Shown here: in pieces, positions 32 to 54,530 of the stretch | How the letters are laid out: each line of letters begins with the position of its first letter | Position numbering within the stretch: position 1 is the first letter of the stretch | NCBI GenBank assembly: GCA_964016885.1 | Contig: OZ024742.1 | Coordinates: 91,450,001-91,514,000 of the forward strand | DNA: 64,000 nucleotides | Origin: Eledone cirrhosa | Lineage: Eukaryota | Direction: 5' to 3' | Notes under the pieces: model-generated | The model's input: only the letters and a program-made list of their open reading frames with translations | Told to the model about the DNA's origin: nothing | The model's database searches: none | Program-made: the position numbers and the translations under genes

Positions 32-96
32 TATTTTATCTGATGAAAGCACACCTTAATTTAACTTGGTGTCCTTGAAATATGTATAATGAAATA
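32..96 (+). ncRNA. Type I hammerhead ribozyme (family A)
   Basis: TATTTTAT-CTGATGA-[AAG.ACACC...GGTGT.CTT stem II]-GAAA-TATGTA-TA-ATGAAATA: 8-bp stem I, intact core, AUA cleavage triplet; a paralogue at 54478-54530 has lost stem III. Confidence 0.7.
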
Positions 97-296
97 AATA
101 TGGTTTTATAAATATAGTTTCCATTTGTTAATATATCGTATATATATATATATATATTGTTATACTTTGGGAGGGTCATGTTGCCAATAAGAAACGTACG
201 CACCAGTTGCTTTCACTTCAATTTATTATAATAAATTTATAAATTTAGGAATTTATAAATTTCCGGTTGGTTGGTTTTCATATATATATATATGAA

Positions 297-404
297 AACG
301 TTCAGAGTCTTGAACATTTTCCTATTACCCACTCTACTACCCTAAGTATTGAGTACTCTGATGCGTTATGGTCCATCTGGTTCCTTACTACACTTCCTTC
401 GTTA
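297..404. repeat. TA-flanked repeat family (CCTATTACCCACTCTACTACC...TTCCTTCGTTA), related to the half-hammerhead palindrome family
   Basis: Clear similarity to 28151-28250, 42690-42772 and 46345-46428. Confidence 0.75.
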
Positions 405-612
405 TATATATATATATATATATATATATATATATATATATATGTTGATTCATGTAGAATTGGGGGTAACCACCGTAAATAAGATACTTAATACATAAAT
501 AGAGTAAGAACAACGAAAATTTAATATAGAAAACGTTTCTACAGGACTAGAAATATTTTATTCGCATGAAATATATATATATATACGCATGTATGTATGA
601 ATATATATATAA

Positions 613-1636
613 TAAATCATGTCTTATGAATCATCAGATATTAAAATATATACTATTTCTTCTTCTAATCAGCATAATTAACCATATACAAAATACATCC
701 TAGCAAGTTATAAGAATAAATTCTCTTATGGGGAAATCTCCGACAAATAATCGATCGTAGCCTCTTCGCGTCGGCCCCGTTCCATTATTTATCCAACATT
801 TCGACAGCATGTAGGATCCGACTAAATATACCATCAACCACACATAATTAGTAGTAAAATTAAACTTAGAAGAAATGCGCACATACCGTAATTATATCTC
901 TACCATGGTTTCTTCCTTATTTAGGACTTCCAAATAATATGGATGCTCAAAGTTAGGTTTCATCAGGAGATAAACTCAAAAATCAGACATCTAGTTTTTC
1001 TAACCGATCGCGCCAAATTTAGATTCAAAAATGGCTAAAATCACTATGTAGTTGTGTTCCAGCCAGAGAGAAAGAGTGTGATTGGTTGCTTACGGCGGGT
1101 AGGCTTGCTGCTAGAAAGCGCAGCCATATATCGCCAAATTTAATCTCAACCAATTGGGAGATTATTAAATATAAAGGTTATCATATACATAAAGTTAAAG
1201 ATATATATATGTTGCAACTGTTCACTTTTAAGCTCTATGAAGAATTAATAAATTAAAATCAAAAAATCAGAGCATTATATCATAAATCATGTCTTATGAA
1301 TCATCAGATATTAAAATATATACTATTTCTTCTTCTAATCAGCATAATTAACCATATACAAAATCGACCCTAGCAAGTTATAAGAATAAATTCTCTTATG
1401 GGGAAATCTCCGACAAATATTCGATCGTAGCCTCTTCGCGTCGGCCCCGTTCCATTATTTATCCAACATTTCGACAGCATGTAGGATCCGACTAAATATA
1501 CCATCAACCACTCATAATTAGGAGTAAAATTAAACTTAGAAGAAATGCACACATACCGTAATTATATCTCTACCATGGTTCTTCCTTATTTAGGACTTTC
1601 AAATAATATGGATGCTCAGAGTTAGGTTTCATCAGA
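613..1636 (-). mobile_element. Non-autonomous HHR-bearing element, partial tandem (period ~670 bp) inserted in (TA)n
   Basis: 613-966 is repeated at 1283-1635; (TA)n on both sides; HHR in the repeat. Confidence 0.7.
892..974 (-). ncRNA. Type I hammerhead ribozyme with long stem II (family B)
   Basis: Reverse complement TTTATCTC-CTGATGA-(47 nt)-GAAA-CCATGG-TA-GAGATATAA; stem I ATCTC/GAGAT, palindromic stem III CCATGG; stem II closure is weak; the second copy (1562-1636) has GAAA->GAA and is cut by (TA)n. Confidence 0.6.
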
Positions 1637-3096
1637 TATATATATATATATATATATATATATATATATATATATATATATATATATATATATATATATA
1701 TGTATGTATATATGTATATATATATATATGTATGTATCTTCCCTTGTCCACATTTTGAATTTGGGAAAAGGCATGTGATAGTTGAGGCATTAGCCACTGC
1801 TAACAATAGAAGCTTACTACATCATACCACACCGGGTCAAGGCACAGAACGTAAACCGGTTGATAATATGAATCCCCAGTTCGGTCTTCAAACAACAACA
1901 ACTTGCATACTTGCGCAAGTAGGATTGTTGATTTTGGATTTCATAGAAACCTGTCGGAGAAACGACGATCTGCCTCCGAGATAGTCCAGGGTTGTTTTCT
2001 TAACCTGTTGGTTTTCTCGTTGCTTCGGTGTCGTGGCTAGGCTTGCCTGCCACAGTTTTCAATTTGTCATGCCGTCTAACGAATGTTATTACTCTGAGAT
2101 TCCTCACGGAGTGCTTGGCTGATTAATCTCTGATTGTATCTCGTTGGCTTGGCTACAGCCGAAGCTTCGATTTTACTAAACTTCCATTTATGTTATACTA
2201 GCTGAAGTACCCAGCTTCGCCAAGATTAACAAATGATAAGAGAAGAGCGGCAGAAGAGAAAACGTCTGTATTGAATGCATTGTCTTGTATACAGTGTGTG
2301 TGTATTGTGTGTGTGTGTGTGTGTGTGTGTGTGTGTGTGTGTGTGTGTGTGTGTGTGTGTGTGTGTGTGTGTGTGTGTGTGTGTGTGTGTGTGTGTGTGT
2401 GTGTGTGTGTGTGTGCGTGTGTGTGTAAACCACCCTTGGAATCTGAGACATAGGCCGCGAAACACGATCATCACTGACAACGAACTCGCAGAGAGAATCC
2501 TTTGTGGTTGATTCCAAACCTGCTAGAAATAGCAGTCAGGTTGGTTAGCATACGTGGTATGTCTTTCTTCTTCTTTGGTGTTATAAAATTAGTGTCAATA
2601 AACTTTCCTCGAGATACTCTTATCCCAATCCTGTACATACTTTCCGATTATCACTTTTCGTTTTTTCTGTGTGATACGCGAAGGAACCAACCAACAAACA
2701 TCTCTCTTTTATATCTCTTTTATTTGTTCATTCAAAATATTTTCCACCTAATTCTGTCGTACAATATACATCAGCAATCGTTATCTAATGTTTAAAACAT
2801 ATGAATAGCTGCGATATATGCACCATATCAATCAAAATCGATATGAGAATTGAATACCATACTAAAGCACCAGTCAGCTTGCTAAGAACCTGCAGATAGA
2901 AATGTTAATAAATACAACATTTGGCTTGGGTAAACTTTAAGATGTTCTTTCATTGTAGGTTTCTTTTCTCAGCCAGTACGTTAAAGAAAATTGATAGTTA
3001 CAACAATAAAGGTTGAACAGAGAACAAATTTTTAACAAACTTTACAATAATTTGTACAACCATAATGGAAATCCCAAGTAACAGAAAATACATAAA

Positions 3097-52281: not shown

Positions 52282-52612
52282 TATATATATATATATATAT
52301 ACAAGGCTTAGTGGTTAGAGCGTTAGGCTTGCAATTGTGAGGTTGTGAGTTAGATTCTCAGACGGGTAATGCGTTGTGTTCTTGAGCAAGACACTTCACG
52401 TTTCTCCAGTTTATTCAGTTGTAGAAATGTGTTGCGACGTCATTGGTGCCAAGCTGTATCGGCTTTAGCCTTTATATATATATATATATATATTTATATA
52501 TATATATATATGTATGTATGTATGTATGTATGTATGTAAACAGAAATAACAACACAATCAGTAGAGTATATGGAAGGTATATATTAGGTCAACGCTTGAT
52601 ATAGCAGGTAGA

Positions 52613-52655
52613 GGGTTTTAACGTTTCGAACGCTAGTCTTTCATCAGAAGAAAGA
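52613..52655 (-). ncRNA. Minimal hammerhead-like motif (family J; paralogue at 31165-31185 lacks stem II)
   Basis: Reverse complement CTT-CTGATGA-AAGACTAGCGTTC-GAAA-CGT-TA-AAAC; stem I is weak; repeat 52537-52745 matches 31085-31290. Confidence 0.45.
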
Positions 52656-53315
52656 ATGAGAAATAAAATAGATTAAGGGGACGGGCAGGATGGAATTGGA
52701 AAACATGTCTTTAGATAAAAATAACATTCATATTGACATCTCTTGCAAATATATATATATATATATATATATGAAAGTTGAATTTAAGATCTCGCCGTAA
52801 CTTCGACTAAATAGAATTGTCTAATAATAACCGCGAGTATAAGTCCCGTTATTATTAAACTATTTTGTTTCGTCAACTTGCTCTCTCTCTCTCTCTCTCT
52901 CTCTCTCTCTCTCTCACTCTCTCTCTCTCTCTCTCTTTCTCACTCTCTCTCTCTCTTTCTCGCTCTCTCTCTCTCTCTCTCTCTTTCTCACTCTCTCTCT
53001 CTCTTTCTCTCTCTCTCTATATATATAAAAGGGTATGGATATTTCAACAGGCACTAGGTACCTATAGATATATGCAAGGTGTTTATAATAGTTGTGGTTC
53101 GATGGTATTAATTTGAGATACCAGAACAATATAAATGAGCGGAGCAAGCAATTATCAAACAATTCTCTAAATAAATTAAAAAACGATTTAAATAATCACC
53201 TGTTCTACTGCTCATTTATATATATATATATATATATATATATATATATATATATATATATATATATATATATATATATATACACACATACATATATATA
53301 TATATATACACACAC

Positions 53316-54295
53316 GTAGAAATCTTATAACGAAACGGCCGTCTGGAAGAAATGAGATATTTATTTAATAATGTCTCATATAAAATAATACAACCAATTA
53401 TCCACGAAATACTGATTAGTTAGTACCCCAAACACTAAATTGGGATAATACTTAAGTATATCCTAATGTTTGTTGAGTGAGATGGAGTTGGTCGGAGTAT
53501 CGCTTAAGGCTTTCTCTGTTTATGTATTGAATATATACTCTTGGGAGCATGATGTTGATTCCAGATATAAGGTTTGACTCTCTTTATTATTATTATTTTT
53601 ATATGAAATACTGATTGATCTTCCTTATATCACATGTCTGATTTAGCCTTAGAGAATAGCTATGTGTATGTATGGGTGATACATGCATATATTTATTATG
53701 TTTTAATATCTCTGTGTGGGAATTAGTTGTGTATACATGTGGTTATTCTTTTAAATTTCCAATTCAGTTCTTATACACGTGGTTAATACCTAACAGATTT
53801 AATTGACCAGCGTGTATATTGTTTTATTTTAAGATGACCTCCCTTTACCCTTTTGGGGACAGCGTGTATTTTTTCTTTGAGAGAACTGCTGGATTCTAAT
53901 CTACCAGTCTCTTCTTAGTGCTGAGGGAGACCATCACCATTCTGTTAATGTCGATATAATTCTTATATCGTTATTGACTGGGCATCCACTGAAGAGTTTA
54001 TAAGCGCCCGCTTGTGTATAAAACTATGGATTATAAACACGTTTCTACATAACCTGGAAATTATTTATTCCAAATTGTAGAAATCTTATAACGAAACGGC
54101 CGTCTGGAAGAAATGAGATATTTATTTAATAATGTCTCATATAAAATAATACAACCAATTATCCACGAAATACTGATTAGTTAGCACCCCAAACACTAAA
54201 TTGGGATAATACGTAAGTATATCCTAATGTTTGTTGAGTGAGATGGAGTTGGTCGGAGTATTGCTTAAGGCTTTCTCTGTTTATGTATTGAGTAT
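53316..54295 (+). mobile_element. Non-autonomous HHR element, partial tandem of period 761 bp, between TA/CA microsatellites
   Basis: 53316-53533 is repeated at 54077-54295. Confidence 0.8.
53985..54108 (+). ncRNA. Type I hammerhead with very long branched stem II (family K)
   Basis: TCCA-CTGAAGA-GTT(T)ATAAG...TTTCTACA...TGTAGAAA.CTTATAAC-GAAA-CGGCCG-TC-TGGA. Confidence 0.82.
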
Positions 54296-54477
54296 ACACA
54301 CACACACACACACACACACACACACACACACACACACACACACACACACACACACACACACACACACACACACACACACACACATACATACATATATATA
54401 TATATATATATCCAAGGAAAACTTGAACCGTTAAGGTATTTTTCTTGGTTATGTCAAAATTTATAAAACACACTTCG

Positions 54478-54530
54478 TATTTTATCTGATGAAAGCGTAC
54501 CAAAATTTTGGTACCCTTGAAATAGAATAA
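54478..54530 (+). pseudogene. Inactivated family A hammerhead (stem III and cleavage site deleted)
   Basis: TATTTTAT-CTGATGA-AAGC-GTACCAAAATTTTGGTAC-CCTT-GAA-ATAGAATA; flanks match 1-135. Confidence 0.65.

Follow-up and report, generated by a model that had tools for sequence, protein, structure and literature searches.

Hammerhead ribozyme motifs were found at high density in a 64,000-nt stretch of the genome of Eledone cirrhosa (assembly GCA_964016885.1, contig OZ024742.1, positions 91,450,001 to 91,514,000), hereafter called the window. With a probability that we put at about 80%, these motifs belong to a large population of Penelope-like elements (PLEs) of the Hydra clade and of short non-coding derivatives that would borrow the PLE protein. 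We lend much the same credence to the proposed mode of movement, in which a Hydra-type protein would prime internally on RNA in tandem or circular form, using one of two sites (A or B), in (TA)n microsatellites, the hammerhead presumably processing multimers.

Motifs were sought on both strands with a type I descriptor (CUGANGA or UUGANAA core, stem II, GAAA, stem III, UH, and a stem I of at least 4 bp). The final form found 18 intact motifs in the window, 150 times the mean of 50 dinucleotide shuffles made in 300-nt blocks (mean 0.12, maximum 1), so that the excess over shuffled sequence implied by the original prediction, an earlier reading of these letters alone, was borne out. A stricter descriptor gave 10 matches, as compared with 0, 0, 0, 0, 0, 0, and 1 for seven decoy cores in the same real sequence, and a form in which the base of stem II had to be paired found one motif or none. 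A 14-nt limit on stem III, which misses family F13, was used in the cluster count given below and was removed in the final counts of window and genome sample. Fifteen of the 18 motifs listed originally were intact by descriptor; those at 45978 and 46538 fell below threshold (7.7 and 8.7, respectively) and that at 52613 has a stem I mismatch, the three being decayed copies with intact siblings elsewhere in the genome. The list was also incomplete, as it lacked the motifs at 28332 (-), 28813 (+), and 31712 (-). The comparison with the Rfam hammerhead models, proposed originally as a check, gave no match: none reached the gathering score in the window and none appeared in two targeted E-value scans, the matches listed consisting only of tRNAs and microsatellite-driven miRNA matches. 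The window hammerheads have atypical stem lengths. Judged by their core and three helices, with helix I open, they were nevertheless confirmed as real type I hammerheads.

The intact motifs fell into 11 families, and two more families were represented by decayed motifs. Since the all-versus-all comparison of the 13 family sequences yielded just three short AT-rich matches, the notion of about a dozen families with no likeness beyond the core holds. A (TA)4 run was present within 300 nt downstream of the cut at 16 of the 18 predicted cleavage sites, compared with 39% of random positions, in agreement with the (TA)n targeting proposed originally.

Two of the families could be traced to PLEs with open reading frames (ORFs). 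About 185 nt separate the F8 motif at 31712 from the GIY-YIG ORF fragment that precedes it, and a GIY-YIG end was found at most 600 nt upstream of 19 out of 25 F8 motifs (at loci mostly retrieved with that protein). F13 was traced to a full-length copy, L216, which consists of a pseudo-long terminal repeat (pLTR), a 715-codon stop-to-stop frame, a 3' untranslated region (UTR) of about 1.1 kb, a second pLTR, and (TA)n, in this order; its 3' UTR plus pLTR is 96% identical to window positions 28427-28964. As the frame follows an in-frame stop, this copy may be broken at its start. The frame displays RWR, DKT, YRDDG, CNCPDRSIC (CxCx5C), YQ..YIG, CNLC (CxxC), and CKH (CxH), a motif set like that described for the Hydra clade, without CCHH, in a single ORF with the reverse transcriptase ahead of a C-terminal GIY-YIG. 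In a consensus built from 52 relatives the corresponding motifs read RWK and DKT, and among the Atlas neighbours of the protein PF26215 (25-31% of the members of the top clusters) and GIY-YIG occur. In F8 the C-terminal Hydra motifs alone were seen. Both families combine a pLTR containing the hammerhead with insertion in (TA)n, and by motifs and architecture F8 and F13 are identified as 3' ends of Hydra-clade PLEs. Truncated F13 copies look ORF-less because of the long 3' UTR before the ribozyme, and since they were traced to an ORF-bearing source, an ORF-less appearance alone proves nothing. Another locus, L217, was considered as a full F13 element and turned out to be two separate truncated copies.

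F2, F3, F7, F9, and F12, in contrast, form head-to-tail units of 670, 316, 595, about 435, and 761 bp, respectively, with one hammerhead each, near-identical junctions across many loci, runs of at least three units in F7, and longest Met-ORFs of 30-125 codons. No Hydra ORF end was found upstream of their 184 motifs with one Hydra-type profile and 1.5-kb flanks. The sequences thus support truly non-autonomous short units in these five families, for which the original description of an ORF-less, non-autonomous population with units of 300-760 bp was accurate (316-761 bp); it failed for F8 and F13, truncated 3' ends of autonomous-type elements. These results bear on whether all the mini-elements are 5'-truncated autonomous PLEs with long 3' UTRs, no separate non-autonomous population existing. 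This is what was found in F8 and F13, and one F1-like motif lies behind a PLE ORF end, F1, F4, F6, F10, and F11 having been placed in neither class; as it is contradicted by the short tandem units, their junctions and their small ORFs in the five families above, we regard it as improbable. The F1-like hammerhead, at a single locus (L202:1-950), is located 840 nt behind the ORF end with no (TA)5 between them, hinting that F1 relatives may be autonomous. An 840-bp tandem of F5 was seen in one of 15 loci.

All families examined showed PLE anatomy, with fixed 3' ends at (TA)n, variable 5' truncation, and the partial tandems and inversions already described in the original prediction. Ends were analyzed in de-duplicated loci of six families, taken from the top matches (nine duplicate loci dropped). 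A (TA)3 run followed 170 of the 202 3' ends scored, as compared with 12.7% of random positions. The distance from the predicted cleavage site to the 3' end downstream was about 18-405 nt, and in no case did the two coincide. Inserts continue through intact ribozymes, indicating that the template was uncleaved or re-ligated, and the 5' ends, in small numbers, showed no evident pile-up at the cleavage site.

Two common 3' end sites, A and B, 43-165 nt apart, were present in six of the seven families examined. Among the 55 inverted insertions that lay wholly within their loci, a count that leaves out one case at an edge and two complex loci, 42 used one site per arm, two the same site, and 11 had an undefined end. 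F13 copies met by chance, for which the sites had been fixed beforehand from L216, used one of each in all 19 scorable cases (22 in total). Altogether, each site was used once in 61 of 63 scorable inversions (P = 4e-16 against 50:50). In the window, the nine inverted insertions inspected all had two different ends. Head-to-head junctions overlapped by 0-9 nt in 29 of 47 cases. These one-of-each ends suggest paired priming at two reverse-transcription start sites. Other origins of the inverted arms were tried. A hidden short inverted arm at the 5' end of uninverted copies was seen with the complementary end in 1/71 and with the same end in 1/71, and was rejected on these counts. Some inverted arms extend past the direct arm in both directions (L105), which led us to reject simple snap-back copying, and twin priming of the L1 type on a single linear RNA is a poor fit, since direct arms do not stop where the other arm starts.

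The same end pattern helps to judge whether the short units might be SINE-like (short interspersed element) or retrozyme sequences moved by another enzyme, or DNA satellites, which we hold to be about as unlikely as universal truncation. Candidate enzymes exist, as reverse transcriptase (RT) fragments of long interspersed elements (LINEs), of the type with a restriction-like endonuclease (RLE), occur in the window at 16074-17906 and 37094-40719, and no sequence likeness ties the units to PLE 3' ends. Two-site ends, the one-of-each rule and inverted truncated arms are nevertheless shared with F8 (5/5 scorable inversions) and F13 (19/19), and the copies are scattered over many contigs without the long arrays of a satellite. 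Still less probable is that (TA)n is not a pre-existing target and was instead written by a telomerase-related RT through reiterative copying of a UA template. By eye, every end site inspected closes with a TA-like stretch, and telomerase is a relative of the PLE RTs (PMC8557442); against this, the truncated 5' ends of uninverted non-coding copies also adjoin TA in 44 of 72 cases, as expected from a split run, and many TA-rich 10-kb samples have no intact motif. Partial lengthening of the target run by the element may occur.

Some inverted structures in the window lacked a complete motif. At 50763-51986, an inverted insertion between TA runs has 331-nt arms 97% identical and no hammerhead found; its right arm has about 35 extra bases, the one-tail pattern of PLE inversions, so that it is possibly a PLE-type family with the ribozyme further upstream or absent. 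A near-perfect hairpin inserted in (TA)n at 23071-23246, with a tail of about 55 nt on one arm and a related copy at 49566-49837, contains CTGATGA without a downstream GAAA and resembles Rfam miRNA precursors below the gathering score. F13 fold-backs (42579-42774 in the window; L045, L046, and L050 elsewhere) are 100-200 bp long, TA-flanked, and mimic miniature inverted-repeat transposable elements (MITEs).

With regard to the ribozyme, stem III was a perfect palindrome in 13 of the 18 motifs, and its predicted pairing probability in the monomer was at most 0.08 in 16 of them and 0.85 in the two F13 copies, whose 5-bp stem III is predicted to fold as a monomer. The palindromic, monomer-unstable stem III matches the dimer-dependent design described for PLE hammerheads (PMC4209133). 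The core was intact in 275 of 301 copies collected by homology from 11 families. Variants common to at least three copies numbered 87 over 1003 other sites and none over 121 core sites (P = 5e-5), changes in stems I and III kept pairing in 86 cases and broke it in 57, and C3-G8/U3-A8 covariation recurred in several families. It is hardly credible, with such covariation, with shared variants avoiding the core and with counts so far above shuffled sequence, that the motifs lack a selected function and are inert relics in hammerhead shape or chance matches, even though no Rfam model matches, cleavage of related PLE motifs in vitro is weak (PMC4209133) and eight of nine Xenopus retrozyme dimers showed no cleavage (bioRxiv 10.64898/2026.07.22.740005).

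According to the mechanism we propose, the PLE protein (RT, CxCx5C linker, and GIY-YIG) would nick (TA)n, and reverse transcription would begin internally, at site A or site B of a tandem or circular RNA, the two sites flanking a 43-165-nt "tail" and priming being perhaps aided by a few bases of UA pairing, as judged by eye. Both target strands would prime, one at site A and the other at site B, and the two cDNAs would be joined at their truncated ends, producing the inversions. The hammerhead, probably dimer-needing in most families for the formation of stem III, would process multimeric transcripts or make circles, and would not set the insertion ends.

Several observations weigh against this interpretation or lessen the force of its support. 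The L216 protein had no match in Pfam, NCBIfam, or PDB, and the ORF-end test relied on a single profile. Between the non-coding units and the 3' ends of F8 and F13, the two PLE families compared, no sequence likeness was detected, so that the link of the units to the Hydra protein rests on anatomy and target. F12 has essentially one 3' end and no inversion in 25 loci. Fourteen of all 77 inversions had an undefined end and two were A+A, and the sites of five families were chosen after seeing the data, with a tolerance of 14 nt. In the sole in vitro PLE study (PMC11167929), the two start sites showed no strand difference and no target homology. Regarding selection, shared variants in stem I were as frequent as elsewhere (0.092 vs. 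0.087 per site), and the statistic for the core, calculated on related copies with non-independent sites, is supportive and not a formal test. A stronger version, in which some 300,000 hammerheads make up an uncatalogued Hydra-PLE ecosystem missed by standard annotation and paired priming is obligatory, one protein dimer using two RNA sites once each on the two (TA)n strands, is put forward tentatively, at slightly worse than even odds. If true, paired priming would account for the tail of PLEs as well as for the inversions and numerous MITE-like fold-backs, and F7 would still be moving.

The genome-wide abundance was estimated from forty 10-kb stretches at hand-chosen round coordinates of the 3.0-Gb assembly; the four largest contigs contributed 23 of the stretches and small unplaced contigs none. 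They contained 38 motifs, against 0.75 in shuffles, and extrapolation from these 400 kb gives about 280,000 motifs in the genome (bootstrap 160,000-410,000). The density of one motif per 3.5 kb claimed originally is therefore valid locally, the window being about threefold richer than the genome average. Motif counts rose with TA content (rho 0.46, 10-kb samples). Among 320 motifs from all DNA gathered, 37 clusters were distinguished, a few singletons of which may be chance, and 24 clusters were present in the random sample. DNA queries with eight families returned 965-3500 first-look candidates each, which are not copy numbers, the best 40 scored matches of each family showing 92-100% identity; F7, whose top 40 matches were 99-100% identical, appears from this to be the youngest family. 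The GIY-YIG endonuclease protein query gave 50,804 first-look candidates. In the random samples, ORF matches to the Hydra profile occupied 5110 of 400,000 bases (1.3%), several PLE ORF ends had no hammerhead found before the next (TA)5, and F13 accounted for 20 clusters. Schistosome genomes may have similar hammerhead densities.

The kind of element is known, as hammerheads in PLEs (PMC4209133), retrozymes (PMC7229834) regarded as non-autonomous PLEs (bioRxiv 10.64898/2026.07.22.740005), and (TA)n targeting by the Hydra clade (PMC8557442) are already in print, which limits the novelty claimed originally; what is notable is the scale and the end rule. No catalogue of this population, scale, or lineage and no statement of the one-of-each rule were found in the literature searched; supplements, Repbase, Dfam, and subscription journals, which lay outside that search, may hold such entries. 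The words ribozyme and hammerhead are absent from the main text of the 2026 repeat annotation of Octopus vulgaris. By this estimate the genome would hold one of the largest sets of ribozymes reported from any genome, one that Rfam does not see, in a repeat class likely filed as unknown, SINE, or MITE. PLE integration and the role of the hammerhead have so far been approached with a single in vitro system. Thousands of young insertions with a strict end rule make PLE integration testable in this genome, and the nearly invariant non-coding F7 and the ORF-bearing F13, with its predicted monomer-folding ribozyme, complete the test set.

Table 1. Hammerhead-bearing elements and related sequences of the window (strand "." denotes a feature given without single orientation).
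Feature	Position	Strand	Details
F1 hammerhead	32-96	+	Core at 40, predicted cut after 88; (TA)n at 139
F1 damaged relative	54478-54575		
F2 non-coding element	606-1635	-	670-bp unit, 1.5 copies; hammerhead 895-972, predicted cut at 901; 5' end truncated at core of upstream copy
F3 non-coding element	12002-12820	+	316-bp unit tandem; hammerheads 12335-12380, 12651-12696; inverted arm 12002-12148; two arms end at different 3' sites
F4 hammerhead	22620-22657	-	U3-A8 core variant
F5 5'-truncated copy between (TA)n runs	23631-23975	+	Hammerhead 23723-23832, 83-nt stem II region
F6 inverted insertion	24596-25480	.	Hammerheads 24743-24792 (-), 25299-25348 (+); contains SINE-like repeat at 24821-25021
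F7 non-coding element	26445-28130	.	595-bp unit, tandem plus inverted arm
F7 U3-A8 hammerheads	26689-26775, 27371-27460, 27966-28055	-, +, +	
F13 inverted, 5'-truncated putative Hydra-clade PLE 3' end	28150-28916	.	Absent from original list
F13 U3-A8 hammerheads with long stem III	28244-28337, 28808-28901	-, +	
F13-type short fold-back	28972-29182	.	No complete hammerhead
Pieces resembling short F13-type fold-back	307-443, 42579-42774, 46298-46428		
F8 5'-truncated putative Hydra-clade PLE	31560-32335	-	Hammerhead 31679-31716; absent from original list
F8 GIY-YIG ORF fragment	31886-32335	-	One internal stop; followed by hammerhead
F9-related fold-back	41958-42562	.	Arms truncated before hammerhead; end at the two different 3' sites
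F9 non-coding element	45230-45836	+	About 435-bp unit, 1.4 copies; hammerhead 45525-45567
F10 decayed hammerhead	45978-46035	+	Stem III altered; intact siblings in cluster C14
F10 second decayed copy	~46538-46595	-	
F9 subfamily	49856-50755	-	422-bp tandem plus inverted arm; hammerheads 50064-50106, 50486-50528
F11 decayed minimal hammerhead	52613-52651	-	Core at 52647, stem I mismatch; intact sibling C30
F11 related copy	31018-31288		
F12 non-coding element	53316-54296	+	761-bp unit, 1.3 copies; hammerhead 53985-54108, 97-nt stem II region

Other features were present in the window. The two LINE-type elements with RT mentioned above, on the plus and minus strands, respectively, are broken and 69% alike over a stretch; we take them to resemble the RLE-bearing R4/Dong elements, and the only species-named match of the LINE protein was Argonauta hians (66%). 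The make-up of SINEs and microsatellites has an octopod look, which together with this match points weakly to a cephalopod host. A tRNA with anticodon UGU (71.5 bits) and its decayed copies (35712-35784, 44260-44332, 47174-47233, 43561, 48238, and 36455) lie inside a larger repeated block, which suggests a tRNA-carrying repeat. A SINE-like family of about 190 bp has at least eight copies (9150, 13840, 18540, 24825, 25690, 36005, 52099, and 59958), one of them inserted within the F6 element, and a minisatellite with 82 copies of a 20-bp unit and strong GC skew occupies 57973-59607.

In comparison with known systems, the motifs of L216 (RWR, DKT, CxCx5C, CxxC, and CxH) match those described for Hydra-clade PLEs, which are reported to target (TA)n and often to have the tail at just one end (PMC8557442; Craig et al. 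2021). That work counts 21 Repbase families and a few more, against the 50,804 first-look endonuclease candidates obtained here, and gives tails of 30-40 nt and units below 3 kb, compared with 43-165 nt here and 3.5 kb in L216; its accessible text has no mention of non-autonomous derivatives. Metazoan non-LTR (long terminal repeat) retrozymes (PMC7229834; bioRxiv 10.64898/2026.07.22.740005) are likewise non-coding, AT-rich units of 300-760 bp with one type I hammerhead, occur as monomers to multimers, and have been proposed as non-autonomous PLE derivatives, an idea tested mainly in vertebrates in the second of these papers; the first also reports circles. The elements described here, mostly of one to three units, differ in showing PLE truncation and inversion and (TA)n targeting, and in forming dozens of unrelated families (37 clusters in 320 motifs) rather than 2-16. 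The estimated total is about twice the 126,247 motifs of the axolotl (about 5000 in mussel; PMC7229834) in a genome around a tenth the size, with descriptors that differ between the two counts; no cephalopod is named in the available text of either paper.

The hammerheads described in PLEs (PMC4209133) have the same short stem I, enlarged stem II, unpaired base after A9, and palindromic stem III, with dimers, the U3-A8 variant, many families per genome, and inverted pairs 100-700 bp apart. Thousands per genome are reported there. As further differences, stem II regions here reach 80-115 nt and the 5-bp stem III of F13 is predicted to fold as a monomer. Poseidon of the green anole (PMC11167929; Frangieh et al. 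2024) belongs to a different clade, and its start sites showed no in vitro strand difference or target homology, whereas inverted arms here use one site each and have a few TA bases at their ends in common with the target. In both systems the tail, downstream of the hammerhead, is flanked by two internal sites at which RT starts, the insertion ends lie away from the cleavage site, and uncleaved RNA (here possibly re-ligated) is the template, and the protein dimer predicted for Poseidon to cut both strands parallels the paired priming proposed here.

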